Origin: Desulfobacterales bacterium
GTDB lineage: Bacteria > Desulfobacterota > Desulfobacteria > Desulfobacterales > UBA5616
Reading direction: 5' to 3'
DNA: 64,000 bases
NCBI GenBank assembly: GCA_046483495.1
Contig: JAWODC010000092.1
Location: 64,001 to 128,000 of the forward strand
Shown: positions 3,556 through 61,728 of the stretch, piece after piece
How positions within the stretch are numbered: the first letter of the stretch is position 1
How the letters are laid out: the number at the start of each line of letters is the position of its first letter
Notes under the pieces: model-generated
Seen by the model: the letters and a program-made list of their open reading frames with translations, nothing else
Databases searched by the model: none
What the model was told of the DNA's origin: nothing
Translations under genes and position numbers: made by a program

Positions 3556-3700
3556 CCTCGATCCAATAACGGCCAATGCACACCATTGCTGCGTCGGTCG
3601 GAAAATATGAATCCTCAAAAGACTCGGCATATTCCTGCAGTTACAATGAAATTTTCATCGCCTTGAACGGAAGCGAATTTTTCTGTTTCCGTATGGACAT
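3556..3700 (+). repeat. Degenerate copy of the ~144-bp hairpin element family
   Basis: CTGCGTC-16nt-TCCTCA-16nt-CCTGCAG-19nt-GCCTTG motif order; ends resemble the 8297 copy. Confidence 0.65.
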
Positions 3701-3788
3701 AAATAAGGAATATCTGCACAGTCTGTTTGACAGAACGTATTGAATCATTTATTAAGAATACCACTTGTTACGTAAAGATTGAAAAGAA

Positions 3789-4190
3789 ATGGATCAGATG
3801 AATCAGATAAAAAACAATATCATATCCCCTGATCGGATTGCAAGCAATATCCTGGAAATTATTCAATATCAATACAAAACCGTCAGAGATATACACATTA
3901 CTATACGGCAGCCGGAATATACATCGGTCTGCCCCATGACGGGACTTCCGGACATGGGATGCATCACAATCGAGTACTGTCCGTCCGAATGGATTGTCGA
4001 GTTGAAGTCACTCAAGTATTATTTGCTGCAATACCGGAATGTGGGCATTTTCTATGAACATGCGGTAAATAAAATTCTGGAGGATCTCGTATCGGTTCTC
4101 AAACCGAAATGGCTGAAGGTCATCGGTGATTTTACCGCGCGTGGCGGAATAACGACTACCGTAAGGGCGGAATACAAGGAGAGACAATGA
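3789..4190 (+). CDS. queF: NADPH-dependent 7-cyano-7-deazaguanine reductase (preQ1 synthase), unimodular
   Basis: EYTSVCPMTGLPD catalytic Cys, ELKSLKYY QueF motif, ARGGI. Confidence 0.93.
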   Translation: MDQMNQIKNNIISPDRIASNILEIIQYQYKTVRDIHITIRQPEYTSVCPMTGLPDMGCITIEYCPSEWIVELKSLKYYLLQYRNVGIFYEHAVNKILEDLVSVLKPKWLKVIGDFTARGGITTTVRAEYKERQ

Positions 4191-5143
4191 CCTCAAAGAA
4201 TCGTAACCAAGACATTTTTCATATTATTATCCGCTGTTTCGTTTTTTTTATGGTTCCCATGCTGTTCGGGTGCGCATCGATGTCATCCCTCGTGGATACG
4301 ACGAAAAAAGTCGATATCCCGTTGATATCCTCCGGAAATGCTTACAAGAAGAAAATCGGCATACTCGCTCCGCAGTCGAATTCGAGCGATAGAGGTATGG
4401 AAACGGCCCGGCTTCTTCATGCCCGGGTAACGGAGCTTTTGTCAAAAAACGAGGGTGTTCTCATGATCGCTTATGATGACCCCGAGGCGCCGCCCTTTTT
4501 AGCTGCCCCGCCCCGCTCATCGGCCCTGAATGCCGTCGACAGTCTCATTTTGGCGGAGAAAAGCCGTCGAGAGGGATTCCTTGCCTGTGTCGGCGTAGCC
4601 GTTAAAGATGTCTCCGTTTTGGAGAAGAAAAGTGGATTCGCCTGGTTCAAAAATACCAAAGAAACGGCGCGGATCCGCATGACAGTGGATGTTTACGGAT
4701 CACGGACCGGGGCTAAAATCATGTGTGACGATTTTATCCGGGAAGTTGACCTTGAACCCGGTGAAAGGCAGAAGGTGGAAGAAGATGACTATGCAACGAT
4801 CGACAACGTCCGGGATGCCGTATCGGATGCCGGTAAAGATATCGCAAAAGCAATCGAGAAGGTGCTGAAAGATGAACCCTGGAGAGGGTTCGTCGTTGCC
4901 GTGGAAGACGGAAAGGCCGTTATTTCATCCGGATCGGAAGTCGGCATAAGCGTCGGCGATGTATTCGAGGTGCAGGATGTTTACGGCACGATTCAGGGTC
5001 CGGACGGAAACCGGTATCGCATTCCCGGCACCGCGGTCGATGAAATTGAGATTGTATCGGTTTCGGCCGGTGAATCCAGAGGAATATCGGTTCTGGAAAA
5101 ACAAATCGATGTGGGAAACACCATCCAGGTACGCCGCAACTAG
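4187..5143 (+). CDS. Lipoprotein of unknown function (C-terminus FlgT-like)
   Basis: Lipobox LFGC; overlaps queF stop (ATGA); C-terminal GSEVGISVGDVFEV. Confidence 0.7.
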   Translation: MTSKNRNQDIFHIIIRCFVFFMVPMLFGCASMSSLVDTTKKVDIPLISSGNAYKKKIGILAPQSNSSDRGMETARLLHARVTELLSKNEGVLMIAYDDPEAPPFLAAPPRSSALNAVDSLILAEKSRREGFLACVGVAVKDVSVLEKKSGFAWFKNTKETARIRMTVDVYGSRTGAKIMCDDFIREVDLEPGERQKVEEDDYATIDNVRDAVSDAGKDIAKAIEKVLKDEPWRGFVVAVEDGKAVISSGSEVGISVGDVFEVQDVYGTIQGPDGNRYRIPGTAVDEIEIVSVSAGESRGISVLEKQIDVGNTIQVRRN

Positions 5144-5169
5144 TGGCGGTCCATCCGGAAACGGCCGGT

Positions 5170-6168
5170 TCACTCATTCGAAGCGATACGAAACACATTG
5201 ACAGGTTTTTCCACCCCTTTGACATTCACCGGTGCAAGTGGATGATACAAAATGTTTTCATGAAGCTTTTCACAGGTGCGTTCACATATCAGGATCTCTC
5301 CGGCATTCGCCATGCTTTCCAGCCGTGAAGCGATATTGACGGCCAACCCGATGGAGGTGAATTCTTTTTTCCTCAACGAGCCGAGGATACCTGAATACAC
5401 GCATCCCGTACTGATGCCGATACCGATTCCGAGTTCCAAGCCGCTGGTTTCTTTGAGTCGATCATCGATTTCGGCTGCTTTTTCCTGCATGTTCAGAGCC
5501 GCCTGAACAGCCCTGTCCGCGTCATCTTCACCGGCAAAGGGGGAGCCGAACAGGACCATTATGGCGTCGCCGATATGTTTGTCGATGGTGCCGTTGAATT
5601 GATGGGCGATTTCCCCCATCGGGGTGAAATAGTGATTGTTGAGGAAAAAGGCGACCGCCTCGGGAGATGCTCTTCGACATAAGCCGGTAAAATTGCGAAT
5701 GTCTGAAAAGAGAACGGTGACTTCGGTCTGGGTCGGATTCAGAAGGCCGGAAGAATGTTCGAGTTGACTGTATACCGGCTCCGAGATGAATTGTCTGAGA
5801 TATTTACGAACCGTGATTTCATGTATTTTTAATTTTAACTCTCGGTTGTCGAAGGGTTTGGTCAGAAACCCGTCAATTCCCTGATTTGCTGCTGCAACAG
5901 CGGCGTCCAGTGTGGCATAGCCGGTTAGAATGATGCGTGTAACGGACGGATTTATCTCACCTATGCGGAGCAGTGTTTCGAGGCCGTCGATACCGGGCAT
6001 TTTGAAATCTGAAATGACGGTTGAAATCTTGGAAATATACTGCTTAATCATCGACACCCCTTCTTCGCCGTTTTTCGCCGAGAATTTTTCGTAAGGTTCG
6101 CGTTTCAACGCGCGCAGGATGGAGCGCCTTATGCCTTCATCATCATCGATTATTAGGATTCCCTGCAT
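5170..6168 (-). CDS. Receiver-domain class III adenylate/guanylate cyclase
   Basis: Start MQGILIIDDD; REC (ISDFKMP); cyclase motifs FSDIRNFT, DKHIGDAIM, VNIASRLE. Confidence 0.9.
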   Translation of the reverse strand: MQGILIIDDDEGIRRSILRALKREPYEKFSAKNGEEGVSMIKQYISKISTVISDFKMPGIDGLETLLRIGEINPSVTRIILTGYATLDAAVAAANQGIDGFLTKPFDNRELKLKIHEITVRKYLRQFISEPVYSQLEHSSGLLNPTQTEVTVLFSDIRNFTGLCRRASPEAVAFFLNNHYFTPMGEIAHQFNGTIDKHIGDAIMVLFGSPFAGEDDADRAVQAALNMQEKAAEIDDRLKETSGLELGIGIGISTGCVYSGILGSLRKKEFTSIGLAVNIASRLESMANAGEILICERTCEKLHENILYHPLAPVNVKGVEKPVNVFRIASNE

Positions 6169-6466
6169 GTGATCCTGCCGATAGTGTAACCTGAAATCAT
6201 TTCCGTTCCGAATACCGAAAATCTTGAAAAACATACCCAATAAAACGCCTTTATTAATATATATAATTACATATGTCAAGAACTGGATGGATCGGCTCGT
6301 TTCTTCTGAAAACGGAGAAACCGGACTGCCGATAACAAAATGATGAGCCCCCCATGGAATTATGGGGACGCCGTCGAAGTTTCCTTGAAGCTTATGCAGC
6401 ATCCTATCTTGACTCTTTTCAATCAAATCAGTAAGTATGATCAGACGATAAACAAGGAGAACCCCT

Positions 6467-6799
6467 ATGTTCGGTATTGGAATGCCGGAACTCATTTTAA
6501 TATTGGCTATTGCACTTATCATTTTCGGCCCGAAGAAACTTCCCGATCTGGCGAAGTCCCTTGGGAGGGCCATGAATGAATTCAGAAGAGCCACCTACGA
6601 AATCAAGGATTCGCTCGACCTCGACAGTGAGATAAAGGAGGCAAGGAAAAATATCGACACGATCAAAACCGACATCACTTCTTCCCCGACGAACCAAGGT
6701 GCACCTGAGATGAACCGCAAGGAATCCGAAAAGAACGACCCTTCCCCCTCTGCCGATTCGACTGCCGCTGATGAAAGGGATTCCAAAACAAATGGATGA
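6467..6799 (+). CDS. tatA: Twin-arginine translocase TatA/TatB-family subunit
   Basis: MFGIGMPELILILAIALIIFGPKKLP; RBS AAGGAG. Confidence 0.88.
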   Translation: MFGIGMPELILILAIALIIFGPKKLPDLAKSLGRAMNEFRRATYEIKDSLDLDSEIKEARKNIDTIKTDITSSPTNQGAPEMNRKESEKNDPSPSADSTAADERDSKTNG

Positions 6800-7538
6800 A
6801 GATGAGAAGATCACGTTTACGGAACATCTGGAGGAATTAAGAAAACGGTTGATCATATCTTTTATCGCCGTTGGGGTTGGATTCGCCGTATCATATGGAT
6901 TCAAGGAGGACATTTTCAAGATGCTCACCCGACCCCTCATTGCTGTTATGGGAGAGGGTGACAAGCTTATCTTTACCGGTCTTCCCGAAGCATTTTTTAC
7001 CTATTTGAAAGTGGCGCTCCTTTCGGGCCTTATGCTGGCGGCTCCTGTGGTGATTTACCAGTTTTGGATGTTTGTCGCTCCGGGTTTGTATAAGAACGAG
7101 CGGCGTATTTTATTGCCGATTGTCCTGCTGTCCTCCATTTTTTTTATCGGCGGATCGCTGTTCGGGTACTTTATCGTGTTTCCCTTCGGGTTTAAATTCC
7201 TGCTGGGGTTTGCATCCGAAACCATTCGTCCGCTCCCTTCCATGCGTGAATATCTTGGATTTTCAGCCAAGTTGCTGCTTGCATTCGGGGTGGTTTTCGA
7301 ACTGCCCCTGGTCCTGACGTTTTTGGCTCGCTTGGGAGTGGTCACGGTGGATACGTTAAAGAAGAACCGAAAATATGCCGTTCTGCTGTTTTTCATCGGC
7401 TCTGCAATTCTTACGCCGCCGGATGTAGTCACCCAGGTGATGATGTCCCTACCCCTGATGGTGCTTTATGAAATCAGCATTATCGGTGCAAAGTTTTTTG
7501 GAAAGAAACCAACCGATGAAGAGAAGGTCTCGAAATGA
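6792..7538 (+). CDS. tatC: Twin-arginine translocase TatC
   Basis: EHLEELRKRL, FVAPGLY, FELP, TPPDVVTQ, LYEISI. Confidence 0.96.
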   Translation: MDEDEKITFTEHLEELRKRLIISFIAVGVGFAVSYGFKEDIFKMLTRPLIAVMGEGDKLIFTGLPEAFFTYLKVALLSGLMLAAPVVIYQFWMFVAPGLYKNERRILLPIVLLSSIFFIGGSLFGYFIVFPFGFKFLLGFASETIRPLPSMREYLGFSAKLLLAFGVVFELPLVLTFLARLGVVTVDTLKKNRKYAVLLFFIGSAILTPPDVVTQVMMSLPLMVLYEISIIGAKFFGKKPTDEEKVSK

Positions 7539-7835
7539 ATTCAAGCATGAAATCGGGTTCGGGCGGTGCTTGTTTCGGTATGTGTTTCACACGGAACCAT
7601 CGGATCCCGATTGAGTCGATACAGTCGAACCGTGTGTTCTGAGTTGACAGGAACGGCTCCGGACTGATAAAAATCAGTTTAACTTTCTTTCGGTGTTTGT
7701 GGCGAGGTGGTAAGGGCGTTCACCGGCCATGATCCTATCCGCTCTGCCGTCGAAATGAAAGCCGAGAGATGAATGGGCTATTTGACAAGCAATGACGTCG
7801 ATCCATACACAACACGTGGAGAAAGGGGGCGTAGT

Positions 7836-8294
7836 ATGATTCGAAAGTGGGTTATGCTGGTGGTTGTCGCCGGCTTTTTTGCCGCGACGGCAATTTTTGC
7901 AGGAACTTCGGTGCCGGATGTCGTGGAAATGAAAAACCCGGCGTATGAGAAGCACACCCGGGGAATTGCGTCGTTTACCCATAAAAAACATACCGAAACG
8001 TATGGGATCGGCTGCGGGGAGTGTCACCATGACGATAGCGGAGAGCCCCTAACCGATCTGGAGTATGGGGATGAAGTCAAAAACTGCATTGAATGCCACA
8101 GCATCCCCGGTCAACCGCCCAGGGGCAAGGATGCCCCCAAGCTGACCGAGGCACAGAAGCTCGAATACCATGCCGAGGCCATTCACGAAAATTGCAGGGA
8201 CTGCCACAGAAAATATAACAAGGAAAAGGGCTTGAAAAGAAAAGACCCGGGATATGCTCCCACCACTTGCAGTCAATGCCATCCCAAAGAATAG
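7836..8294 (+). CDS. Periplasmic tetrahaem cytochrome c3 (class III)
   Basis: Signal peptide, FTHKKH, four CxxCH motifs (CGECH, CIECH, CRDCH, CSQCH). Confidence 0.93.
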   Translation: MIRKWVMLVVVAGFFAATAIFAGTSVPDVVEMKNPAYEKHTRGIASFTHKKHTETYGIGCGECHHDDSGEPLTDLEYGDEVKNCIECHSIPGQPPRGKDAPKLTEAQKLEYHAEAIHENCRDCHRKYNKEKGLKRKDPGYAPTTCSQCHPKE

Positions 8295-8296
8295 TT

Positions 8297-8440
8297 AGTG
8301 TTCATCCAGAAATAGGCAGTTTCGCGTGAGTTCAAGGCGGGCGCAAGATCGAAACCGCAGGAATCGTGTGCTATTTTGAGGATTTCGATTTTGCGTCCAA
8401 CGCAGAAATCGCGTGAAAGGGCCATTTATGGATGGACACT
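8297..8440 (-). repeat. 144-bp palindromic element (MITE/REPIN-like), copy A
   Basis: Imperfect terminal inverted repeats AGTGTTCATCC...GGATGGACACT; nearly identical to 16369-16511. Confidence 0.92.
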
Positions 8441-8478
8441 GTTAGATAAAACAGGTGAACCGGCATCGGGCAGCGTTT

Positions 8479-9318
8479 TCAGTTTTCCCTGATGCCGGTC
8501 ATTTTGAATCCGACCGCCGCCCATCCTTTTTCATCTTCCAGGAAAATTCTTTCAAACCGTTCCGGCCTGTAAACCGATACAATATCCGCCATTTCTTTAC
8601 ATTTGATGCCTGAAAAGACCAAAAAAGACCCGGGCCATGAAATAGCCGGCAACAGAGGAGCCAGCTGAATAATGCCGGTGAACCGAAGATTGGCGGCAAT
8701 CAGGCAAAAGCGGGTGTCCAGACATTCAGCGGTTTTTTCTCGAACATCGAGGGCGCCGGTTAAATGATTCAGCTCGATGTTATGTCGAGCCTCGGCTACG
8801 GCGTTCGGATCGATGTCGATGCCCAACCCGTTGCAGCCCGTCAGTTTAGCAGCTGCAAGAATCAGAATGCCGGAGCCGGTTCCGACATCCAGGCAGGTGG
8901 GGTACTGAAAGGATGTCCTCAATGCGCATGCGATACGGTCGATGGCCCTGACCGCCAGGCGGGTCGAGGGATGCCGTCCGGTGCCGAAAGCGGCGCCGGT
9001 CATCAGGTTGATAACGACTTCACCGTTGTTCAGCACATAGGTTCTTTCAGGCGGTTTGACGATCACGCGTTTCGACATGCGGACCGGTTTGAGAATCGAC
9101 GGTTCGATAAACGTGCAGCCGTATTCATTCGTATAGGAAAGGGTCTCCTTTTTAACCAATTCATGGATGATTCTTCTGGACTGCTTCCGTGTGATCGAAA
9201 ATCGGCAATGGATTCGGTGTTCCAGGGCGTGGGGCGTAATTTTGCGGTTGGACGATGAAAACATTTCAAGGATTCCGGATTCAAACCCACCGGAATCTTC
9301 ATAGTGCCGATAATTCAT
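8479..9318 (-). CDS. PrmA-like SAM-dependent protein methyltransferase with atypical N-terminus
   Basis: GAAFGTGRHPST, LDVGTGSGIL, GIDID, AANL, FSGI. Confidence 0.85.
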   Translation of the reverse strand: MNYRHYEDSGGFESGILEMFSSSNRKITPHALEHRIHCRFSITRKQSRRIIHELVKKETLSYTNEYGCTFIEPSILKPVRMSKRVIVKPPERTYVLNNGEVVINLMTGAAFGTGRHPSTRLAVRAIDRIACALRTSFQYPTCLDVGTGSGILILAAAKLTGCNGLGIDIDPNAVAEARHNIELNHLTGALDVREKTAECLDTRFCLIAANLRFTGIIQLAPLLPAISWPGSFLVFSGIKCKEMADIVSVYRPERFERIFLEDEKGWAAVGFKMTGIREN

Positions 9319-10726
9319 GGGAGGACTTTTTCTTTTTCATAAAAGAAAGGGCATTCGAAACCAGGGAGGATGCCCAAGCGGGCAGGCCCAGAGTGTGAAT
9401 ATGGGTGTATGCGGCAAGGACGTTTTTTATGCATACACCGTCTCTACCGTACAAAAAACCGGCGCCTCGTTGCATGTGAAAAACCAGTTGATCCTCTGTC
9501 CCGAACCATTTCAGGACATTGGAATAATGAAATTCATGTCCCTTAAATACCGTTCCCACTTCCAGGAACGGATTCGGTTTGTCCACGCAGGCAACCGTAT
9601 AGCCCAGTCCCTGAGGCTTTTCGGAAATGCCGAAAACGGCAGGCAGAACGCCGGCCATGGGATACGTCGAATCGTTTATCACAAGCGATTCTCCAAGATA
9701 CATAAGTCCACCGCACTCGGCGTAAACGGGAAGTCCGTTTTTCACCATTGCCTTAAGCCGGCGTTTAAAAGCCGTGCCCGCTGAAAGCTTTTGGGCATGG
9801 GTTTCCGGAAAACCGCCCCCGATGTAAAGTCCATCCACGTCAGGCAGGTTGTCGTCGCTCAGAGGACTGATGAAAATGACAGAAGCGCCTGCTGTTTTCA
9901 GGGCGTCGATATTTTCCGGGTAATAAAACTGAAATGCCGCGTCTTTGAAAATGCCGATGCAGGGCCGCGCTTTTTCGACTTGCAGCGATGGTTCGGCGGT
10001 GCAGCCGGAAATGGCTGCTGTGTGCGGCGGCCGTGCCGAATGCCGTCCGGCGATGTCGACAACAGCGTCCAAATCGATGTGCTGTTCGGCAATCAAGGCT
10101 GTCTTCTCGACAGCTTCTTTCGCCCATTCATGCTCAGGCGTCGGGACCAGCCCCATGTGCCGTTCGGGAAAAATTTTATCCGGAATTTTCGGAACGGCGC
10201 CGATAACGGGAATGCCGCAGTGATGGTTGATTGTCTGGGTCAATATCCGTTCGTGTCGTGATCCGGCAACTCGGTTCAATACAATGCCGCCAAAGGCCAC
10301 GTTCGGGTCGAAGTGCATGAGCCCCAATATCATGGCTGCCATGGTTCGGGTGGTTTTCGTGCAATCAACCGCCAGAATCACCGGGGCTTGCAGCAGCTTG
10401 GCCAATTCAGCGGTGCTGGTTTTGCCGTGCAGGTCGATGCCGTCGAAAAGTCCCCGGTTTCCTTCAATGACGGCGATATCGCCGGGAGACGTGCGGGAAG
10501 AAAAAGACCTCAGAATTAGATCTTGCGATAGGATGAAGGTGTCCAGATTGAAGCACGGCCGACCGGCGGCGTATGCCAGCCAGCCTGCATCAATATAATC
10601 CGGTCCTTTTTTAAACGGAACGATTGAGAAATGTTTCTTTTTCAGGGCCGCGATCAATCCGATCGAAAGGATGGTTTTTCCTGACCCGCCGCCAAGAGCG
10701 GAAACAATGAATCTTCCGTATGTCAT
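9299..10726 (-). CDS. dsrN: Cobyrinate a,c-diamide synthase homolog (sirohaem amidase)
   Basis: GGSGKT, FKKGPDYID, EGNRGLFDG, PERHMGL, YAECGG, GHEFHYS; lies directly after dsrD. Confidence 0.9.
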   Translation of the reverse strand: MTYGRFIVSALGGGSGKTILSIGLIAALKKKHFSIVPFKKGPDYIDAGWLAYAAGRPCFNLDTFILSQDLILRSFSSRTSPGDIAVIEGNRGLFDGIDLHGKTSTAELAKLLQAPVILAVDCTKTTRTMAAMILGLMHFDPNVAFGGIVLNRVAGSRHERILTQTINHHCGIPVIGAVPKIPDKIFPERHMGLVPTPEHEWAKEAVEKTALIAEQHIDLDAVVDIAGRHSARPPHTAAISGCTAEPSLQVEKARPCIGIFKDAAFQFYYPENIDALKTAGASVIFISPLSDDNLPDVDGLYIGGGFPETHAQKLSAGTAFKRRLKAMVKNGLPVYAECGGLMYLGESLVINDSTYPMAGVLPAVFGISEKPQGLGYTVACVDKPNPFLEVGTVFKGHEFHYSNVLKWFGTEDQLVFHMQRGAGFLYGRDGVCIKNVLAAYTHIHTLGLPAWASSLVSNALSFMKKKKSSHELSAL

Positions 10727-10786
10727 ACGCGTCTCGGCATGCGTCGGCAATATTCGGGTGAAGCTGAACCGGCCCTGCGGCGTTGA

Positions 10787-11029
10787 TTACTTCTCTTCGT
10801 GTTCGGCTGCAGCTTGTTTGCCTTTTCCGGAAAGACCGTACATGGAGGTGCTGCCGCTTGACCAATATTCGAGCACACCGTCCTGCACCAGTTGATTGAC
10901 TACTTTTTTGGCGTCCCTGGGTTTGGTTTCCAGGATTTTTGCCAGATCATTGAAATAAAATTTTGATTTCGTTTTAAGCTTCTTTGTCAGTTCGGTAACG
11001 ATTTTTTCTTTCGCCTCTTCGTATTCCAT
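10787..11029 (-). CDS. dsrD: Dissimilatory sulfite reductase protein D
   Basis: KSKFYFNDL, LEYWSSGSTSMYGL; downstream of dsrB. Confidence 0.97.
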   Translation of the reverse strand: MEYEEAKEKIVTELTKKLKTKSKFYFNDLAKILETKPRDAKKVVNQLVQDGVLEYWSSGSTSMYGLSGKGKQAAAEHEEK

Positions 11030-11052
11030 ATTGCGCCCCTTTTTTTATAGAT

Positions 11053-11079: not shown

Positions 11080-11097
11080 TTGTGCAAAAAAATTAAA

Positions 11098-16208: not shown

Positions 16209-16368
16209 TGGAGAGGGTTTTTCGAATGCCGCGATTCACCGGATCGATTCACCGGATAAAGACACCGGTAGACGAACCCCCTTTATTCCATTCCGGATTC
16301 ACCTTTAAAAACAATGACCGGGCAGGCTTGCGTTTGGTTGCAGGCACCTGCCCGATGATCTTCAATTT

Positions 16369-16511
16369 GTGTTCATCCAGAAATAGGCAATTTCGCGTGA
16401 GTTCAAGGCGGGCGCAAGATCGAAACCGCAGGAATCGTGTGCTATTTTGAGGATTTCGATTTTGCGTCCAACGCAGAAATCGCGTGAAAGGGCCATTTAT
16501 GGTTGGGGCAC
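16369..16511 (-). repeat. 143-bp palindromic element, copy B
   Basis: Near-identical to 8298-8439 apart from a few substitutions; sits between convergent genes. Confidence 0.92.
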
Positions 16512-16514
16512 CAA

Positions 16515-17441
16515 TTAACGTTCTTCTCTGGGCACGTAAGCACCGGCCGACATCGGCAGATCGGGAAGGGGGCTCAAAATTTTGTCGATGTTCTGTGCGA
16601 TTTCATCGATGGTAAACATGCCGCCGTCTTTCTCGACCCCTTCGGAAACGGCCATTTTAAACTCGCTGATCTTGTTTCCCTTGATGCCGCCGTGGCTGGC
16701 CATTACGCGTCCGGTTAAATCTTTGGCCAATTCCGACGCCAGGTAAACGGCCAACCGGGCCGTAGGAAGCACCGAACTGACCTCTTCCAATTTTTCACCT
16801 TCTTTGGCGCGATTTTCGGCTCCCGGAATCGTGGCTACCAGCCGTGTGAATCCGCTGGGGCTGACGCAGTTCACCCGGATGCCGTATCGTGCCAGTTCCA
16901 TCGCGGCTATTTTGGTGATGCCGTATATCGCCAGCTTTGCAGCACCATAATTGCTTTGCCCGAAATTGCCGCATAATCCGGACACGGATGTCGTGTTGAT
17001 AATGACGCCGCCGGTTCCCTGGGTCCGCATAATCCGGGCTCCGGCCCGGGTGCACAGGTAGGTTCCTTTGGCGTGAACGCGCATCACGATATCCCAGTCC
17101 GCTTCCTGCATATTCAAAAGGGTTCTGTCACGCAGGATGCCGGCATTGTTGATCAGGATATCCAGCTTGCCGAATTTTGACAGTGCCGTCCACATCAAGG
17201 TATCCACACCGTCAAGGACGCTGATGTCGGAAAAATCTGCTACGGCAGCACCGCCTGCCTCCTTGATTTCGTTTGCCACCACACTGGCGACGCTGGCGTC
17301 GGAACCTTTGCCGTCAGCGGTTCCACCCAAGTCGTTGACCACCACCTTGGCGCCCTCCTCGGCCAGCAGCATGGCCTCGGCCCTGCCGACGCCCCTGCCG
17401 GCGCCGGTGACGACTGCCACTTTTCCATCAAATAATCCCAT
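16515..17441 (-). CDS. Short-chain dehydrogenase/reductase (3-hydroxyacyl-CoA dehydrogenase-like)
   Basis: TGAGRGVG, VVVNDLG, NNAGILRD, YGAAK. Confidence 0.92.
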   Translation of the reverse strand: MGLFDGKVAVVTGAGRGVGRAEAMLLAEEGAKVVVNDLGGTADGKGSDASVASVVANEIKEAGGAAVADFSDISVLDGVDTLMWTALSKFGKLDILINNAGILRDRTLLNMQEADWDIVMRVHAKGTYLCTRAGARIMRTQGTGGVIINTTSVSGLCGNFGQSNYGAAKLAIYGITKIAAMELARYGIRVNCVSPSGFTRLVATIPGAENRAKEGEKLEEVSSVLPTARLAVYLASELAKDLTGRVMASHGGIKGNKISEFKMAVSEGVEKDGGMFTIDEIAQNIDKILSPLPDLPMSAGAYVPREER

Positions 17442-17792
17442 TATGTGCTCCTTTCGCATTGATGTGATTGGTGAATAGGTGCCCATTCCGAAACGGCTGA
17501 TTCGCTCCATTTTAACGTTGAACGGAAAATATCGATCCTCGGAATACCTAACGTATTCCTGCGGTAAATATTCCCTTTCACTTGAACTGAATCGAATTTT
17601 TTCATTTCCGGATGGACACCGAATCAATTATATGTTTTGGAAGTGAAACTGCACGGCGAGGATAACAACAGCCGTTTTGTAAAATTCGGTTTAGGAGAAC
17701 GTTTTTCTTTGATCGTTTGTACAAAATCAGGGAAAAAGAGTCAAGCATGTCCAGTCCAAAAATAATATAAAGGTGATTTATTTTCCAGGGAG

Positions 17793-48868: not shown

Positions 48869-49210
48869 ATGATCGAAGATTATACACAGGGACGGATTCG
48901 AATCGATGGAAAGAGCTATGATGAGGATATCAAAATCATTGAAAAGAAGGTAAAACCCCACTGGTGGCGGAGAGAGGGGCACCGGCTGGAGAAGGCGGAT
49001 ATCGGTGATGTTTTCAAGGCCCGTCCGGATATTCTTGTTGTCGGAACCGGCTATGCACAGCAAATGAAAGTTTCCGAAGATGTTCTATCGCATGCCCGGG
49101 ATAACGGCATGCGTGTGATTTCCGAGTCCACGCCCTCTGCAGTGAAGACCTTTAATCGCATTTTGGCGGAGGGGGGGGAGGTGGCGGGAGTGTTCCACCT
49201 AACCTGCTAG
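48869..49210 (+). CDS. Mth938-like (DUF498) protein
   Basis: PDILVVGTG, TPSAVKTFN, C-terminal FHLTC. Confidence 0.88.
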   Translation: MIEDYTQGRIRIDGKSYDEDIKIIEKKVKPHWWRREGHRLEKADIGDVFKARPDILVVGTGYAQQMKVSEDVLSHARDNGMRVISESTPSAVKTFNRILAEGGEVAGVFHLTC

Positions 49211-49352
49211 TGGCCGTCCGGAAGGGGCATCTTTTGATCCGGAGCGGCGTTTTCGCCTTTTTGAAGTCCTCAAAATAGCAGACTATTCCTGCGGCTTCAA
49301 AAAGAGCTCATGCCTTGCTCCGGACCAAAAGCCACCCCTTCCGGACGGCCAC
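49210..49352 (+). repeat. 143-bp hairpin element, divergent family member
   Basis: 18-bp terminal inverted repeat GTGGCCGTCCGGAAGGGG/CCCCTTCCGGACGGCCAC; core TCCTCAAAATAGCAGACTATTCCTGCGG. Confidence 0.88.
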
Positions 49353-49366
49353 CGGACGATTTAATT

Positions 49367-49410
49367 CGGAAGGGGCATCTTTTGATCCGGAGCGGCGTTT
49401 TCGCCTTTTT
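49367..49410 (+). repeat. 44-bp direct duplicate of the element's left arm (49219-49262)
   Basis: CGGAAGGGGCATCTTTTGATCCGGAGCGGCGTTTTCGCCTTTTT repeated. Confidence 0.9.
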
Positions 49411-49424
49411 TCCGGGGACACCGC

Positions 49425-53159: not shown

Positions 53160-53167
53160 TAAAGCGG

Positions 53168-54363: not shown

Positions 54364-54777
54364 GCTCCACTTCTTTTCACATCTCGTTCATCCCTCAAAA
54401 TCGGCTGATTCGGGAAGTTGTACAATTGCTGGTTCGCTGAAACCGACGCTAAAAACGTCTGACATGCAAGGACCGGGATTCTGATTTTTGTAATGCAGGC
54501 TGCCGCGCCGGTAAATGAGGTCAATCACTTATATGCATCTCGATCGGCCCGTATCCGGCGACGGCTAAGCTTTCAGATATCGTTTGCGAAGCGTGTGGTG
54601 TTACGATGCCGATCTGAAAGTACAAGGGCTGGTTACAAGCGATACGTGCTTTCCCCCATTGCCTCGAAAAGAAACGGTTTGTAGAGTTTGTGCCGGCACT
54701 ATTTAGAAATATCCGGATGGATAGCGGCCGAAAATCAGCTGCTCGACCGGCCTACCCGTTTACATGGAATTGCGAAC

Positions 54778-55137
54778 ATGAGACGAACCTTATTATGTGC
54801 GGCGGCATTCATGAGCTTTTGTATTTTGTCCGAGCCGAACGCCGATTATAAAAAGCTGCGCAGACTCGATCACTATTTCGAGGTCGAGAATTATGAGCGG
54901 CAAGGAAACGGCTTTATCATCGAGGTTTCGAATAAGAGCAAACAGGGCTTTGCCGATTTCACCGTAATTTTCAATGGCTACAATGTCAACCGCGTCCATA
55001 TTTACCGACGCGAAACCATTGTCGACTTCATGGAGGGAAAAAGCGAACGAACCTTCTTCCTGCCGGGATATGATAAGCGGGTGTTCAGGATAGAAATCGA
55101 AGTCTATGATAAAAGTCCGGTACCGAAAGGCTATTGA
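54778..55137 (+). CDS. Hypothetical secreted protein
   Basis: Signal-peptide-like start MRRTLLCAAAF; fills the intergenic gap. Confidence 0.55.
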   Translation: MRRTLLCAAAFMSFCILSEPNADYKKLRRLDHYFEVENYERQGNGFIIEVSNKSKQGFADFTVIFNGYNVNRVHIYRRETIVDFMEGKSERTFFLPGYDKRVFRIEIEVYDKSPVPKGY

Positions 55138-55180
55138 AAACGGATTGATGCGATCAAAAACGGATAATCATTTCATTAAA

Positions 55181-55198
55181 GTACAGGGAAACCCCCAT
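55181..55198. promoter_or_regulatory. 18-bp box (reverse orientation) upstream of dodecin
   Basis: GTACAGGGAAACCCCCAT (reverse complement ATGGGGGTTTCCCTGTAC). Confidence 0.55.
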
Positions 55199-55255
55199 TT
55201 TTAATGAGTTCGAACCATTTATGGTGGAATAAACACACAACAAGGAGGTGCGGCT

Positions 55256-55468
55256 ATGAGTGACAGCGTATACAAGGTGATAACGCTGGTAGGGTCCAGC
55301 TCGGAAAGCTGGGAAAAGGCGGCGGCAAAAGCGGTTGAGGTTGCCGCCGGTTCCCTGCGCGATTTGAGAATCGCGGAAGTCGAAGAATTCGATTTGCAGA
55401 TCGAAAACGGCAAAATTCTCAGTTACCGCGTAAAAGTAAGGGTCTCCTTCAAATATCAGAAAGAGTAA
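55256..55468 (+). CDS. Dodecin-family flavin-binding protein
   Basis: VYKVITLVGSSSESWEKAA...YRVKVRVSFKY; RBS AAGGAGGT. Confidence 0.93.
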   Translation: MSDSVYKVITLVGSSSESWEKAAAKAVEVAAGSLRDLRIAEVEEFDLQIENGKILSYRVKVRVSFKYQKE

Positions 55469-55482
55469 ACTTTCCAAGCCGA

Positions 55483-55511
55483 GGGGTAGCATCTCGGTCG
55501 AATGCTACCCC
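55483..55511. terminator. Hairpin between convergent dodecin and YbhB genes
   Basis: GGGGTAGCAT-9nt-ATGCTACCCC. Confidence 0.65.
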
Positions 55512-55957
55512 CTTTCATAGCGGCCCATCAATTCTGTTTTTTCGATGATGTGGCCGGACATGGCATTTTCCAGTTGCGCTTTGGTCGATTTTTCGGGCAG
55601 GTCCAAATCATCATCGAGGGCGAACAGTTTAAAAAAATACCGGTGCTCCCGGTCAGGCGGACAGGGGCCGAAATAACCCGGTTGCCCGTTTGTCCCGAGC
55701 CCTGCGGCTCCTTTGGGTTCTTCTCCTTCTGGGATGGCGCGTGTAGCCGCCGGTATATTGAAAACAACCCAGTGGTCCCACATTCCATCCTCTTTTAAAT
55801 TCTTTGGGACATCGGGATCTTCCATGATCAGAGCGAGACTTTTCGCCGCTGCCGGAACATCTTCCACGCTTAAAGGCGGACTGATATTTTCACCGTCACA
55901 GGTGTATTTGGATGGAATTTTCCCGTCATGTTCAAACGCCGAACTGGTGAGTTTCAT
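55505..55957 (-). CDS. YbhB/YbcL (PEBP/Raf-kinase-inhibitor-like) protein
   Basis: YTCDGENISP, EDPD, WDHWVVFNIP, YFGPCPP, HRYFF. Confidence 0.94.
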   Translation of the reverse strand: MKLTSSAFEHDGKIPSKYTCDGENISPPLSVEDVPAAAKSLALIMEDPDVPKNLKEDGMWDHWVVFNIPAATRAIPEGEEPKGAAGLGTNGQPGYFGPCPPDREHRYFFKLFALDDDLDLPEKSTKAQLENAMSGHIIEKTELMGRYERG

Positions 55958-56099
55958 GGCATTCTCCTCTTCCTGGTGTTTGCAGCAAGCCATTCACTAT
56001 ACCGGAGTGTGATTATGGCTTACAGTAATTGAAAATTAAAATCAATGCGGCTGTTTACTTGAACAGGAATTTTCATAACATTGGGTTCGCCCAAAAAAA

Positions 56100-56117
56100 A
56101 TAGGGTTAATCCTGTAT
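56100..56117. promoter_or_regulatory. 18-bp box (strong copy) between divergent ybhB and polX
   Basis: ATAGGGTTAATCCTGTAT. Confidence 0.65.
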
Positions 56118-56246
56118 ATTATCGCAACAAACGTTATGGATAATAGGATAATGAATTATCGTTTTGACCCATTCATTTTTTCAGAAGATAGAAGTAATGT
56201 AACCGTATAAAAATGGGTCGGCGAAGATAGAAAGGACCTGTAACCC

Positions 56247-57968
56247 ATGCCTGTTCAGAACAAAGATGTCGCGGATATGTTAAAAAAGATGGGGGACCTG
56301 CTGGATATCAAAGGGGATAATCCATTTCGGGTGCGTGCATACCGGAACGCCGCCAGGATGATTTCAAGCCTGCCGCAGGATCTATCCGAGATGGTCGAAC
56401 AGGGCGCCGATCTGACCCGTCTCAGCGGCATTGGAAAAGACCTTGCCGTTAAAATCACAGAGATCCTCGCAACGGGAAAACTGCCGCAGCTCGAAAAGCT
56501 GGAAAAATCGATGCGGCCGGAGCTCCTTGAACTGTTAAAGATCAATACCCTGGGACCGAAGCGGATCAAGGCTCTTTACCGCGAACTGGGCATTGCCGAT
56601 TTGGCGGATCTCGAACGCGCGGCACGGGAAGAAAAAATCAGGGAGATTAACGGATTCGGTGAAAAGACGGAGAAAACCATTCTGAAGGTTTTGCAGGCGG
56701 CACCCGGACCGCAGCCGCTCACGAAGTTTATCGACGCAGAACAGCGGGCCCGCCCCCTGTGCAGGCATTTAAGCGCCGCCCGCGGCGTAAAGGACATCGT
56801 GATTGCCGGCAGCTTTCGCCGCCGCAAAGAGACGGTCGGCGATTTGGATATCCTGGTCACCTGCGAGGATGGGACCGAGGTAATGTCCCGGTTCAAGGGC
56901 TATGAAGATGTTCAAACCGTTCTTGCCTGGGGAAAAACAAAATCATCGGTGGTTCTTCGGTGCGGACTCCAGGTGGATTTGCGGGTTGTTCCCGAGGTGG
57001 TTTACGGTGCGGCACTCCATTATTTTACCGGATCGAAAGCCCACAATATCGCCGTACGCACAAAGGCTGTCAAAAAAAGATTGAAGATCAACGAGTACGG
57101 CGTTTTCAGGGGAAACGAACGTGTCGCCGGCCGTACCGAAGAGGAGGTCTACGCCGCCGTAGGCTTGCCATATATCGAACCCGAACTGAGAGAAGATCAG
57201 GGGGAAATTCAAGCTGCTGGAAAAAGCCGATTGCCCCGACTGGTGACATTGGCGGATATGAAAGGCGATTTGCACGCGCATACGAACCGAACGGACGGCC
57301 GTGCAACACTTGAAGAAATGGCATCGGCGGCCGCAGCCCTGGGATACAATTATCTCGCCGTTACAGAGCATTCGAAGCGCGTTTCCGTTGCTGGAGGACT
57401 CGATGAAAAAGAGCTTGCCCGGCAGATGGATGAAATCGACCGACTCAATGAAAAGCTTTCCCGAATCCGCCTGCTCAAAAGCATCGAGGTGGATATTCTG
57501 AAAAACGGAGATCTGGATTTACCTGACGACATTTTAAAGCAACTCGATCTGACGGTTTGCTCGGCCCATTACTACCGGAATCTGTCCCGGGAAAAGCAAA
57601 CCGATCGCATTATACGTGCCATGGATAACCCTTGCTTCAATATTCTGGCCCATCCGACCGGGCGCATTATCAACGAACGCAGTCCATTGGAACTGGACAT
57701 GGAGAAAATCCTGATAGCGGCAAAGCAGAGGAACTGCATCCTTGAAATCAATGCCCATCCGGACCGACTGGATTTGACCGACCGCTATTGCCGTGCGGCC
57801 AAGGAAATGGGCGTCAAAATGGCGATCGCAACGGATGCGCATTGCGAGGAGGATTTGAATCTCATGAGATACGGCGTTTACCAGGCTCGAAGGGGCTGGC
57901 TCGAGGCCGGAGATGTCGTTAATACGCGTAGTCTGGAAGACTTGATGTGCGTGATACGAAGAATTTAG
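56247..57968 (+). CDS. polX: DNA polymerase X with PHP domain
   Basis: NPFRVRAY, AGSFRR, GDLDIL, VDLR, YFTGSKAHN; PHP DLHAHT, TEHS, TDAH. Confidence 0.96.
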   Translation: MPVQNKDVADMLKKMGDLLDIKGDNPFRVRAYRNAARMISSLPQDLSEMVEQGADLTRLSGIGKDLAVKITEILATGKLPQLEKLEKSMRPELLELLKINTLGPKRIKALYRELGIADLADLERAAREEKIREINGFGEKTEKTILKVLQAAPGPQPLTKFIDAEQRARPLCRHLSAARGVKDIVIAGSFRRRKETVGDLDILVTCEDGTEVMSRFKGYEDVQTVLAWGKTKSSVVLRCGLQVDLRVVPEVVYGAALHYFTGSKAHNIAVRTKAVKKRLKINEYGVFRGNERVAGRTEEEVYAAVGLPYIEPELREDQGEIQAAGKSRLPRLVTLADMKGDLHAHTNRTDGRATLEEMASAAAALGYNYLAVTEHSKRVSVAGGLDEKELARQMDEIDRLNEKLSRIRLLKSIEVDILKNGDLDLPDDILKQLDLTVCSAHYYRNLSREKQTDRIIRAMDNPCFNILAHPTGRIINERSPLELDMEKILIAAKQRNCILEINAHPDRLDLTDRYCRAAKEMGVKMAIATDAHCEEDLNLMRYGVYQARRGWLEAGDVVNTRSLEDLMCVIRRI

Positions 57969-58176
57969 AATGTATCTGATCCCCGGCGGATGCGAATCGT
58001 TTTGCAATTCGATCGGATTTTGGTTAAACTGGAATTTCAAATGTCAGGGTTCATGTCTACGCGATTTGGGCCATCCGCCGGCATCGACTGATCCGCCGGA
58101 AAGGCCAGAACCGCAGCGCCGGGCAAGGCCGCGACCAGCTTGGAGAAACGATCTGTCAAGCCAAGGAGACGAAGAA

Positions 58177-59301
58177 ATGGAAGAAAAAAGCAATCCAATG
58201 GAACTGGAAAACATATCCGATATTCAGATAGTCATGGATCTGGTTTCTGACTTGATCTGCATTATCGATAAAGACGGCTGCTTTACTTTTCTCAATATGG
58301 CCTGGGAAGAAACGGTGGGCTATGCAGTACACACCTTAAAAGGTAAACCGTATCTTGATTTCGTCCATCCGGAGGACCGTGAAAAAACGGAGACGGAATT
58401 TAAGAAGCACTTGACGGGGTATCCCACACCGACGTTCGAAAGCCGGTTTAAATGCAGTGACGGCACCTTTACGGTTCTTGAAGTACGAATGTTATCGCCT
58501 GATCAAAACCGCATTTTGGCCGTTGCAAGGGATATGACAAAAGAGAAGAAGAATGAAGAAGCCATCCGATACAACGAAACCCGGTTCAGGACTTTATTTG
58601 AAAATGCCTTGAACCCGATATTCGAGATTGATGGGGATGGGAGGTTTCTCAACGCCAATACGGCCGCCCTCGATTTTTTGGAGTGCAGTCGCGGTGAAAT
58701 CTTTTCTAAACGGTTGTCTGATTTTTCGACGCAAAAAGATTCGGGTCGGGCGCTTAAACCCGGTGCATCTCTGGAGACCGGCATTTTTGAAGAAGATTAT
58801 GTCGTTAACGGGAACCTCAAAACACTGATTCTGCGCATGGCCCCATTGGACGTTGAAGACGTGAAAACGTTTTGCGCCATTGGATATGATGTCACAGCAT
58901 TCAGAAAAGAGGCCGAAGAAATCCGCGAAGAAGCCGCACCCGCCAAGATCCGTGTCCTGTTGGCCGATGATCATCCGGTTATGCGGGATGGGTTGTCCCA
59001 ACTGCTTTCTTTGCAGCCGGATATCGAGGTTGTCGGTGAAGCATCGGATGGGAAAGAAGCGGTGGAGAAAACCCGTGAAATGTCACCGGATGTCGTATTA
59101 ATGGATGTCAACATGCCCAACATGAACGGCGTTGAAGCGACACGATTGATTCATTCGGAATATCCCGATATTCGAATCATCGGGTTGTCCATGTTCGGGG
59201 TTGACTCAAAAGCCTCGGAAATGATTTATGCAGGCGCATCCGCCTATCGGTCTAAAAGCGGCAATACCGATTTGCTCGTCGCATCGATTCGCGGAACCTG
59301 A
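58177..59301 (+). CDS. PAS-PAS-receiver protein (no kinase or output domain)
   Basis: RBS AAGGAG; FVHPED PAS, second PAS, LLADDH...LMDVNMP receiver at the C-terminus. Confidence 0.85.
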   Translation: MEEKSNPMELENISDIQIVMDLVSDLICIIDKDGCFTFLNMAWEETVGYAVHTLKGKPYLDFVHPEDREKTETEFKKHLTGYPTPTFESRFKCSDGTFTVLEVRMLSPDQNRILAVARDMTKEKKNEEAIRYNETRFRTLFENALNPIFEIDGDGRFLNANTAALDFLECSRGEIFSKRLSDFSTQKDSGRALKPGASLETGIFEEDYVVNGNLKTLILRMAPLDVEDVKTFCAIGYDVTAFRKEAEEIREEAAPAKIRVLLADDHPVMRDGLSQLLSLQPDIEVVGEASDGKEAVEKTREMSPDVVLMDVNMPNMNGVEATRLIHSEYPDIRIIGLSMFGVDSKASEMIYAGASAYRSKSGNTDLLVASIRGT

Positions 59302-59372
59302 TGCGGCATGCCGATTTCAGGAGGCGTTAAGAGCGGATCTGCTTGCAGATTACGAGTAGAAAGGATCGAAAA

Positions 59373-60473
59373 ATGGCAAAAGACCCGGTATGCGGCATGG
59401 AAGTCGATGAACGGCGGAGCCATTCGCATAAAGCGGTTTACATGGGAAAAACATACTATTTCTGCTCGAATGACTGCAAGGCGACGTTTCAGCGCAATCC
59501 CGAAAAACACATCAAAGCCTCCCGATCACCCGTTACGGCCAAGCGAAAAGTCGTGGTGGTCGGAACAGGAGAAGTGGGAGCCACCTTATGCTTCGCCCTG
59601 CTGATAAGCGGTCTCGCCTCGGATATCGTTCTCATTGACAAAGACTTCGAGAGAGCCGAAGGCCATGCGATGGATTTGAATCATGGTCTTTCATTCGTGC
59701 AGCCCACCCGTATTTTCGCCGGTAATTATCCGGACTGCAGGGACGCTGATGTCGTCATCGTAACCGCGGGTGCCGCGCAGAAGAAAGGGGAAACACGCCT
59801 GGACCTCGTTCGAAAGAATACGGAAATTTTCAGAGACATCATACCTAAGACAACCGAATACGATCCAGGAATTATTCTGATCGTTTCCAATCCGGTGGAC
59901 ATTCTGACCTATGCAGCCTATAAATTTTCCGGATATCCCATGAACCGTGTCATCGGGTCCGGAACCACCCTGGACACCGCCCGCTTTCGATTTTTACTGA
60001 GCCGTCACTGCCGAGTCGATCCGCGAAACGTCCACGCGTACATCATCGGGGAGCATGGGGACAGCGAAGTCCCGGTGTGGAGCCAGGTGAACATCGCCGG
60101 AGTGCCGTTGAGGGATTACTGCCCTGTGTGCAGCCGTAATTGTGGCCCGGAGGAGCAGAACGAAATCTTTCAACAGGTCAAGCATTCGGCCTATGAAATC
60201 ATCAATCGCAAAGGGTACACCAATTTTGCCATAGCGCTTGCCCTCGTCCGCATTCTGAACAGCATACTTCGCGATGAAAACAGCGTCCTGACCGTCTCAA
60301 GCCTGATTGACAATTACTACGGTGTAAAAGATGTCTGCCTCAGCATTCCATGCATTTTGAATGTCAACGGCGTCTTTCAACACATTTATATCAACCTGAA
60401 TGAGGCGGAGCGCAGCTTGTTTCGGGATTCCGCCGATACGCTGAAATCAATTATCAAAGAACTCCGTTTATAA
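59373..60473 (+). CDS. ldh: L-lactate dehydrogenase with N-terminal YHS/TRASH domain
   Basis: KDPVCGM...YYFCSNDC; GTGEVG, GAAQKKGETRLDL, SNPVD, LDTARFR, GEHGDS. Confidence 0.92.
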   Translation: MAKDPVCGMEVDERRSHSHKAVYMGKTYYFCSNDCKATFQRNPEKHIKASRSPVTAKRKVVVVGTGEVGATLCFALLISGLASDIVLIDKDFERAEGHAMDLNHGLSFVQPTRIFAGNYPDCRDADVVIVTAGAAQKKGETRLDLVRKNTEIFRDIIPKTTEYDPGIILIVSNPVDILTYAAYKFSGYPMNRVIGSGTTLDTARFRFLLSRHCRVDPRNVHAYIIGEHGDSEVPVWSQVNIAGVPLRDYCPVCSRNCGPEEQNEIFQQVKHSAYEIINRKGYTNFAIALALVRILNSILRDENSVLTVSSLIDNYYGVKDVCLSIPCILNVNGVFQHIYINLNEAERSLFRDSADTLKSIIKELRL

Positions 60474-60529
60474 TTTCCGGCTGGTGAGCGGGCTGAAAAG
60501 CATTCATTACCTGCAACAAGGAGAAAAAA

Positions 60530-61576
60530 ATGCTTAACATCATAAAAGAATATTTAGGGGATGAAACGGATTCCCTGTTGACCTATGCGGCAAAATTTCC
60601 AAAAGAGCAGCTGCATCTGCCGGGCCCGGACTTTGTGGATCGCGTTTTTTACCATTCAGACCGTTCGATCAACGTGATGAAAAACCTCCAGCGTATTTTT
60701 CAGACCGGCAGGCTGGGGGGAACGGGATACCTGTCTGTTTTGCCGGTCGATCAGGGCGTTGAACACTCTGCAGGCGCATCTTTCGCTCCGAATGCGATCT
60801 ATTTCGATCCTGAAAACATCGTCAAGCTGGCGGTGGAAGGCGGATGCAATGCCGTTGCGTCAACACTCGGAGTGCTGGGAATGGTTTCCCGCAAGTATGC
60901 CCACAAGATTCCATTTATCATGAAAATAAATCACAACGAATTGTTGACGTATCCCAATACATACGACCAGATATGCTTTGGAAGCGTCGATCAGGCGTTC
61001 GACATGGGGGCGGCCGCCGTCGGCGCCACCATTTATTTTGGATCTGTGGAAAGCGACAGGCAGATCATGGAAGTCAGCGAATCATTTCGGTATGCGCACG
61101 CACGGGGCTTGGCAACCGTTTTATGGTGCTATACAAGAAATGCCGAATTCAACCGGGATAAGGATTACCATGTCTCCGCCGATTTAACCGGCCAGGCCAA
61201 TCATCTCGGCGTTACCCTTCAAGCCGATATCATAAAGCAAAAACTGCCGAAGAATACGGGGGGGTTCAAAGCCCTCGAATTCGGCAAATACGACGAGCGA
61301 ATGTATACGGAATTATCGTCGGACCACCCGATCGACTTGACCCGTTACCAGGTGATCAACAACTATGTGGGGCGGGCCGGGTTGATCAACAGCGGCGGTG
61401 CGTCAGGGAAAGACGATTTCAAAGACGCCGTTAGAACCGCCGTCATCAACAAGCGCGCGGGTGGAATGGGACTGATCACGGGCAGAAAGGCATTTCAGCG
61501 GCCCATGAAAGAGGGCATCGAACTGCTTCACCTGATTCAGGACGTTTATTTGGAAAAGCGTATCGAAGTCGCATAG
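60530..61576 (+). CDS. fbaB: Class I fructose-bisphosphate aldolase (DhnA type)
   Basis: [39 protein letters not shown]. Confidence 0.95.
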
Positions 61577-61582
61577 CCTCCA

Positions 61583-61728
61583 TACAAGCTATCTCAAAAT
61601 AATCTTTTGCCCCAATATCTTCGTTGGAACCGCATGTTACGTCCTCAACATACATGAGTATGCCTGCGGCTTAACATGCGGTTTTGCCTTGATCTTGAAC
61701 CAAAATATTTATTTTGAGGCAGCTTGTA
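61583..61728 (+). repeat. 146-bp hairpin element, divergent family member
   Basis: Terminal inverted repeat TACAAGCTATCTCAAAATAA/TTATTTTGAGGCAGCTTGTA; core TCCTCAACATACATGAGTATGCCTGCGG. Confidence 0.85.

Follow-up and report, generated by a model that had tools for sequence, protein, structure and literature searches.

We have examined a family of short hairpin elements in a 64,000-nucleotide stretch of contig JAWODC010000092.1 (positions 64,001 to 128,000), from the genome assembly of a Desulfobacterales bacterium; the whole of this 64-kb stretch is referred to here as the window. A first-pass annotation, made from the letters alone, had listed five such hairpins at 3556, 8297, 16369, 49210 and 61583, and a five-way alignment confirms that all five are present there and are mutually related. 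We applied to the window a covariance model trained on 59 diverse members of the family, and we find a sixth copy and, beside one of the five, an internally deleted one (Table 1; F1 to F5 are subfamilies). We argue below that these elements are most probably MITEs, small transposable elements that end in inverted repeats.

Table 1. Copies of the hairpin element in the window, with their matches to the covariance model, their tips and the bases that flank them
Position	Strand	Copy	Model match	Tips and flanks
3554..3700	+	F1, degenerate; ends read by eye	3553-3703(+), 39.6 bits	decayed tips of the GTGCCCATCC type; flanked by TAAATC / (T)AAATA
8298..8439	-	F2, 142 nt	8295-8441(-), 120.9 bits	+ strand tips GTGTTCATCC...GGATGGACAC; imperfect flanks TAGTTA / TGTTAG
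16369..16511	-	F2, 143 nt	16366-16512(-), 110.2 bits	flanks CAATTT / CAATTA, agreeing at 5/6 positions
17479..17619	+	F1, sixth copy, absent from the first-pass list	17477-17622(+), 93.5 bits	
49210..49352	+	F5, 143 nt	49208-49355(+), 111.4 bits	GTGGCCGTCC...GGACGGCCAC; no visible duplication
49363..49422	+	F5, internally deleted second copy, 10 nt after the first		right tip CCGGGGACAC, read by eye
61585..61726	+	F4, 142 nt	61583-61729(+), 114.6 bits	CAAGCTATCTCAAAA...TTTTGAGGCAGCTTG; TA duplication at 61583-61584 and 61727-61728

The copy at 3554, which had been called degenerate, has the lowest model score of those in the window, and its flanks resemble a worn 6-bp duplication. The two F2 copies are near-identical, as had been claimed (98% identity across 141 nt); the left flank of the first contains the stop codon of an upstream open reading frame (ORF) that ends at 8294, and the right flank of the second contains that of a convergent ORF that ends at 16515. 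The complete F5 copy has the best-paired arms, and in its deleted neighbour a 44-nt left-arm segment equal to 49219-49262 is joined directly to the right tip. Subfamily F3 has no representative in the window. The sixth copy overlaps the 5' end of the mechanically called ORF 16515..17627 (-), whose frame of 370 aa reads through the element; the true start of this ORF probably lies further downstream.

The host assembly comprises 4.19 Mb in 94 contigs. A profile built from the five window copies gave 193 non-overlapping nhmmer matches at E<=1e-5 over the whole genome, 150 of them full length and 43 partial, and with the covariance model there were 149 matches among 150 candidates scored. The copies in the genome thus number about 150-190 and fall into at least five subfamilies; clustering yields five, of 71, 37, 15, 12 and 9 copies, together with 49 singletons. 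The core pattern CTCAAMATA-N5-8-TATKCCTGCG occurs 63 times, as against no occurrence of the reversed control, and none of 74 relaxed core matches is situated outside an element, so that we find no stand-alone core. The elements are 141-146 nt long and non-coding, the hairpin spans their whole length, and the copies are dispersed singly over many contigs without forming arrays. F2 looks young, its copies diverging by a mean of 5% from their own consensus. We note that five of the six F5 copies in the genome share a right flank, NGGACGATTT, and that the unit in which F5 spreads may be a longer, composite one. The first-pass annotation had expected further copies in the genome and no Rfam family that would explain them, and this is what we find, with 149-193 copies, no Rfam match in the window at the gathering threshold and only chance-level matches around two copies at a permissive threshold (E up to 10). 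A plasmid collection likewise contained no match to the element.

A covarying hairpin between inverted-repeat tips

In an alignment of 59 family members, RNAalifold draws one long hairpin of 40 pairs, 34 of which have changed on both sides. Paired cells make up 91.8% of the total, as against 70.7% in shuffles, of which 500 were made and none came as high as the real alignment; with slid partners the figure is at most 47.7%. These double-sided changes and controls support the earlier proposal that it is structure that is selected and that the sequence of the arms is free. The 59 rows were picked by the core pattern, and 46 of them also by the outer words, so that conservation of the word columns is partly built in, while the stems were unselected. 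The words that had been described as fixed (C..CGT, TCCTCA, CCTGCRG and GCCTTG) do appear as conserved columns of the five-way alignment, and the claimed two-fold symmetry holds at the level of words, which run CTGCG, CCTCAA, apical hairpin, CTGCG, CCTTGA along one strand. Folding sets each CTGCG-type word opposite a CCTYRA-type word, the inner and the outer pair being of opposite orientation. Apart from one conserved T.C mismatch and a small bulge, the inner words pair almost regularly; by our reading the outer words can be drawn likewise if wobble pairs are admitted, and their CTGCG word is relaxed to CKKCG in F1, F3, F4 and F5. Wobble counts (G.T 55, A.C 81 of 2347 cells) point clearly to neither strand.

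Within the subfamilies of this genome the core is no better conserved than the arms, the per-site divergence profiles being flat. We have therefore rejected constraint on the core after insertion, and any selection would act on which copies spread rather than on copies already in place. By eye only, neither an IHF-like site nor a promoter in the body is conserved between classes. Two further elements, L205 and L206 (G041:C1:5340845-5341076 and 449000-449220), carry the same 26-nt insertion in the core between TATGC and CCTGCGG, which looks like a tiny nested insert. Five elements of other genomes (L033, L129, L130, L138 and L155), otherwise normal, contain a recurrent insert of ~25-30 nt in the inner left stem that includes TGGCACGCAGTGAAGC, a word whose letters resemble a sigma-54 -24/-12 box.

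Every subfamily consensus has inverted-repeat tips, and 86% of the cells in helix 1 of the model are paired. Where both ends can be placed, TA/TA flanks are found at 10 of 12 F3 copies and 9 of 10 F4 copies (19/22 together). Exact 6-bp duplications flank 6/47 F1 and 7/31 F2 copies (for example TAAGTA, TAACTA, TATCTA and TAGTTC), and several further F1 and F2 rows are, by eye, one base short of matching hexamers. The hexamers have the form TANNTA, and because their two middle bases vary from site to site yet agree between left and right, we take them to be duplications and not part of the element. On a complete Desulfosarcina chromosome (G041), exact TAGTTA, TATTTA and TGGCTA flank 3 of the 10 GTGYCC-tipped copies that were read.

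A candidate driver and the exchange of modules

The Desulfosarcina chromosome has 19 DDE_Tnp_1 hits with a frame of 465 aa and one with a frame of 464 aa. Three copies of the corresponding insertion sequence (IS) are 99.9% identical over 1702-1706 bp and end in GTGTCCATCCACGAAAAT and, when the other end is read inward, GTGTCCGTCCATAAATTG. All four IS copies read, three in G041 and one in a second relative, G045, have exact 6-bp duplications (TAATTA, TAACTA and TAACTC in the former, TAACTA in the latter). The G041 transposase consists of DUF772 and DDE_Tnp_1 domains and scores 433.4 bits against NCBIfam NF033593, the ISNCY family transposase (cut-off 325), the IS5 and IS1182 models scoring lower. 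Tips of the GTGYCCATCC class and the 6-bp TANNTA duplication are thus common to F1 and F2 and to this IS; the GTGTCCATCCA tips of elements and IS are identical over 11 nt, and the inward-read right end of the IS agrees by eye with the F2 left tip at 16 of 18 positions. Among 150 candidates scored per genome, 131 are elements in G041 and 133 in G045. Because the similarity ends after ~18 nt, the body of the element does not derive from the ISNCY insertion sequence. ISDol1 is an ISNCY subfamily, and its group in ISfinder makes 6-7-bp duplications. We also note a weak hairpin in the G041 insertion sequence, folded from the 125 nt at its right end (L219:2038-2162), that contains an internal, degenerate version of the tip and scores 15.7 bits (E 0.46) on the element model; it may offer a clue to the origin of hairpin mini-elements from a single end.

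A third relative, G042, carries an IS1182-family insertion sequence (351 bits) with TA flanks and tips TAGGAGCCTGTCGGAC, which by eye resemble the tips of an element class, TAGGAGGCTGTCCGAG, at ~11 of 14 positions, two elements of that class having been read. When the body was compared with the ends of the ISNCY and IS1182 insertion sequences the tips alone aligned, and the 11-nt word TCCTCAAAATA in the IS1182 right end is probably there by chance. Several other candidates were rejected. A search for an autonomous copy in the present genome, by way of tip pairs 250-6000 bp apart and of the DNA beside 21 half-copies, brought up nothing in common; the single DDE_Tnp_1 gene of the genome (contig C25) lacks MITE-like tips; IS630/Tc1 transposases (Pfam DDE_3) are absent here and present in 2 of 12 relatives with the core pattern, and the ends of the G045 IS630 are unrelated to the elements.

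Elements with different ends, when compared, show the family to be modular. The comparison covered four tip classes: GTGCCTGAACG, which has 6-bp duplications; GAGACCTTTG, which has duplications of 5 bp such as GTTGC, AGGTC, ATTAT and TCTTC; GTGTCCATCC; and GGAGGCTGTCC. Across these classes the bodies (~90 nt) are 84-93% identical and the ends 39-62%; conversely, F1, F2 and a foreign copy (L153) have ends that are 78-80% alike and bodies that are 65-74% alike. Because bodies match across unlike ends and ends across unlike bodies, tips and bodies are distinct modules that have recombined, and it is this reassortment that gives the impression of fixed motifs set in variable arms. Of 40 relatives from the same order, 12 contain the core pattern (reversed controls, 0), and identical 26-nt cores occur in different families of that order. 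Among public genomes it occurs in at least 120 stretches, mostly from Desulfobacterales and other Thermodesulfobacteriota; since we estimate that ~70 matches to the bare pattern would arise there by chance, an isolated hit elsewhere is weak evidence. At 13 loci in Acidobacteriota, Gammaproteobacteria, Bacteroidota and others, however, the core is central in palindromic elements with CCCGC- or AACCC-type tips; CTAG, TTAG or TTAA is present at the 4 of these loci whose flanks were read, and many of the 13 (untallied) have a left CTACTGCG word and a right CCTCGC word. In an even sample of 151 genomes from across the phylum, the covariance model itself matches 25, and it does so in 20 of 111 genera.

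We consider it likely, with a probability of roughly 0.8, that the elements form a MITE family moved in trans by DDE transposases and built of modular tips and a folding body. They have the features by which bacterial MITEs are recognized, being short and non-coding, with terminal inverted repeats, target-site duplications and many dispersed copies; ends shared with an autonomous IS are found for the GTGYCCATCC class in G041 and G045, and not in this genome. According to this proposal the gene-less elements of ~143 bp would be mobilized by transposases of the IS5-like clan (DUF772 plus DDE_Tnp_1). Two tip modules of ~25-30 nt would serve as the terminal inverted repeats seen by the transposase and would fix the length of the target duplication, and the inner module would be the self-folding body of ~90 nt. 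For the GTGYCCATCC class, to which we assign the copies at 3554, 8298, 16369 and 17479 and probably that at 49210, the driver would be an ISNCY-family insertion sequence that cuts TANNTA targets with a 6-bp stagger; the class of the copy at 61585 would have a TA target. Reassortment of bodies and tips would let one body travel on different transposases, surviving insertions would mostly lie directly behind stop codons, and an intact folding body would favour spread, for example by joining two close tips or by binding a dimeric factor. The body would then be kept because only copies in which it is intact spread well.

Several observations weigh against this proposal. The ISNCY transposase is not in the present assembly (tblastn found none and NF033593 gave 0 hits), nor did self-megablast of this genome reveal a multi-copy insertion sequence, the repeated segments encoding ordinary proteins; yet F2, which is missing its transposase here, looks young. 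Scores above the NF033593 cut-off occur in 7 of 41 relatives, of which three are among the 12 carriers of the core pattern and four lack that pattern. The resemblance between IS and elements is confined to the outermost ~18 nt, a driver was found neither for the TA class nor for the 5-bp class, and none of six F5 copies has a duplication. Finally, polymorphism between empty and filled sites was not seen, a genome of the same genus being ~72% identical and offering no clean empty site, and contigs from public runs, which provide cover as contigs only, contain no joint that skips an element; we therefore infer movement solely from the duplications.

Placement, transcripts and rival readings

The first-pass annotation placed four of its five copies between convergent genes. 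This is true in the window but is no rule across the genome, where 37 of the 193 hits are convergent, 85 are tandem, 46 are divergent, 17 lie inside gene calls and 8 lie at contig edges. These figures come from crude ORF-based gene calls, which weakens them as support for the MITE interpretation, and they are near the shares of intergenic length (tandem 53, divergent 32 and convergent 15%), with a mild convergent excess. The elements do lie close behind genes: a stop codon falls inside the 6-bp flank of 31 of 106 exact-ended elements, as compared with 57 of 1475 intergenic TANNTA sites, and gene 3' ends lie within 6 bp of an element in 32 of 104 cases as compared with 3 of 103 for gene 5' ends. 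This adjacency to stop codons, which are often composed of TA and the first G of the element, accounts for the earlier impression of convergent genes. In tandem intergenic regions, orientation relative to transcription is unbiased (36 same, 49 opposite). In copies that abut a stop, the strand on which CTGCG comes first is the sense strand of the gene by 25:7 (p=0.002, exploratory); in a larger, less exact set the ratio is 31:18 (p=0.085), and we treat this bias as a lead only. Metatranscriptome contigs cover the copy at 3554-3700 fully and run from the upstream gene into the copy at 16369; these are contigs, without strand, level or 3' ends, and DNA carry-over is possible. We note that elements of the family produce false ORF extensions and TA|G stop codons. 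Elsewhere in the window, positions 2356-2625 hold three tandem 90-nt repeats, 66-78% identical, within ORF 2005..3255 (-), the protein of which is probably repetitive.

A different possibility is that the element acts primarily as RNA, as a 3'-UTR hairpin for protein binding (as the first-pass annotation had also proposed), stabilization, processing or termination, with mobility being secondary. The excess of gene 3' ends, the strand preference of stop-abutting copies and the metatranscriptome contigs would all fit such a role, as would the size of the helix between the word pairs, which at about two turns would be that bound by dimeric double-strand RNases. We nevertheless regard a primary RNA role as improbable, given that tandem regions show no orientation bias and the stop-adjacent bias weakens in the larger set, that divergent regions hold 46 of the 193 copies, that Rfam has no match at either threshold, that the wobble counts favour no strand clearly and that the transcript evidence has the limits just described. 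Less probable still, and in our view very unlikely, is the suggestion of the first-pass annotation that a dimeric HUH transposase (RAYT/IS200-type) or a tyrosine recombinase acts on the elements as folded single-stranded DNA, in the manner of attC sites or REPINs. The covarying hairpin, the two-fold arrangement kept by the mismatched words and an assembly devoid of a DDE driver are consistent with it, and the genome does encode two Y1_Tnp proteins of ~335 aa. These (G000:C18:10539-11543 (-) and G000:C94:36651-37649 (+)) have an N-terminal Y1 (HUH) domain and a long C-terminal extension, and Y1 frames of ~330-350 aa are found in many relatives. The elements, however, do not flank either gene as had been envisaged for a RAYT/TnpA, the nearest lying ~4.4 kb and ~9.6 kb away, beyond the 4 kb inspected on either side, and Y1_Tnp is present in relatives with and without elements alike, 39 of 41 in all, a count that includes short IS200-type frames of ~130-180 aa. 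The copies are single and scattered over many contigs rather than arrayed; their inverted-repeat tips agree, as does the duplication length, with those of a DDE-type ISNCY insertion sequence; and they are flanked by duplications of 2 and 6 bp that vary yet match. To our knowledge, the enzymes of IS200/IS605 and of integrons make no such target duplications.

Two further readings concern the body and not how the elements move. The body might be without function, shared merely through a young, spreading family, and the symmetry of its words an inherited accident of one ancestor. That the core is no more conserved than the arms within this genome, and that identical 26-nt cores in different families of the order fit a recent spread, speak for this. 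Still, the stems between the words differ greatly by subfamily yet pair, which takes time and selection; the four-word layout recurs with other tips, 4-bp flanks and in other phyla (13 loci); and the mismatches have been retained rather than repaired to perfect pairing. We therefore find a functionless body rather doubtful. Tentatively, and as a possibility we would not put much above that one, the ~90-nt body may instead be a functional module that a dimeric factor recognizes, either in RNA or as a hairpin extruded from DNA, and that has been captured repeatedly between the tips of different IS families (ISNCY, IS1182-like and CTAG-targeting) and has switched drivers across several phyla. Such a module may consist of a two-turn helix bounded by the mismatched CTGCG/CCTYRA motifs, each with its conserved C.T mismatch, about a two-fold axis and capped by the conserved apical hairpin, and its repeated capture would be due to its promoting the transposition, or the tolerance, of whatever short element carries it.

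Significance and relation to known systems

In place of the reading of these hairpins as substrates of a single-strand recombinase we put that of a MITE family moved by DDE transposases, in which the driver of one tip class can be named. For most bacterial MITEs no driver is known; in the present case one tip class can be tied to the poorly studied ISNCY family, with its distinctive 6-bp TANNTA target. The family is also abundant, reaching hundreds of copies per genome in several Desulfobacterales. The recurrence of the symmetric body with different tips and duplication lengths points to an exchange of modules and to some requirement for the body, and it is the body and its exchange between tip classes that we consider the part worth following. 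Many genes of environmentally important sulfate reducers would have their expression affected if the body were to bind a factor or to shape the transcripts behind stop codons. In addition, assemblies break at these repeats and ORFs acquire false ends from them, so that a model of the family is of help in annotation.

Neither Rfam nor the literature searched, which left subscription journals and ISfinder outside, contains a description of the family, and a term search of the text, as far as it was covered, of a 2024 review of prokaryotic MITEs (PMC10969869) returned neither 'ISNCY' nor 'Desulfo'. Several described systems are nevertheless alike in part. The Correia elements (CREE/NEMIS) of Neisseria are gene-less, ~100-200 bp long and present in more than 100 copies, with terminal inverted repeats and a long hairpin; like the present family they fall into subtypes that differ in their ends and are often transcribed together with the genes beside them. 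They duplicate TA, whereas the duplication length here depends on class (2, 5 or 6 bp) and the tips match an identified IS family. The same review gives Correia elements an IHF site and transcripts that are cut by RNase III (PMC10969869). We claim no sequence relationship, and by eye the centre of the present element has no conserved IHF consensus.

REPINs and their RAYTs resemble the family in being abundant intergenic hairpin repeats whose structure is kept by compensatory change, yet the elements described here have target duplications and IS-like inverted-repeat tips, and we found no flanking single-copy RAYT. Integron attC sites are imperfect palindromes of similar length with a few conserved mismatched positions in variable stems, as are the present elements, which differ in having duplications, in lacking cassette arrays (no search for intI was made) and in having ends such as GTG...CAC and CAAG...CTTG rather than attC core sites. 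ERIC/IRU and other enterobacterial palindromic MITEs are imperfect palindromes of ~130-150 bp with a strongly conserved centre that lie in transcribed intergenic DNA behind genes, and in all of these respects the present family is like them, differing in host phylum and sequence and in that a driver IS can be named for one class. ERIC is linked with RNase E in the passage of the MITE review that deals with it (PMC10969869). There is, finally, the tie to the ISNCY insertion sequences (NF033593): although the elements have no transposase gene and nothing in common with them beyond ~18 nt, they share the GTGTCCATCCA tips and the 6-bp TANNTA duplication.

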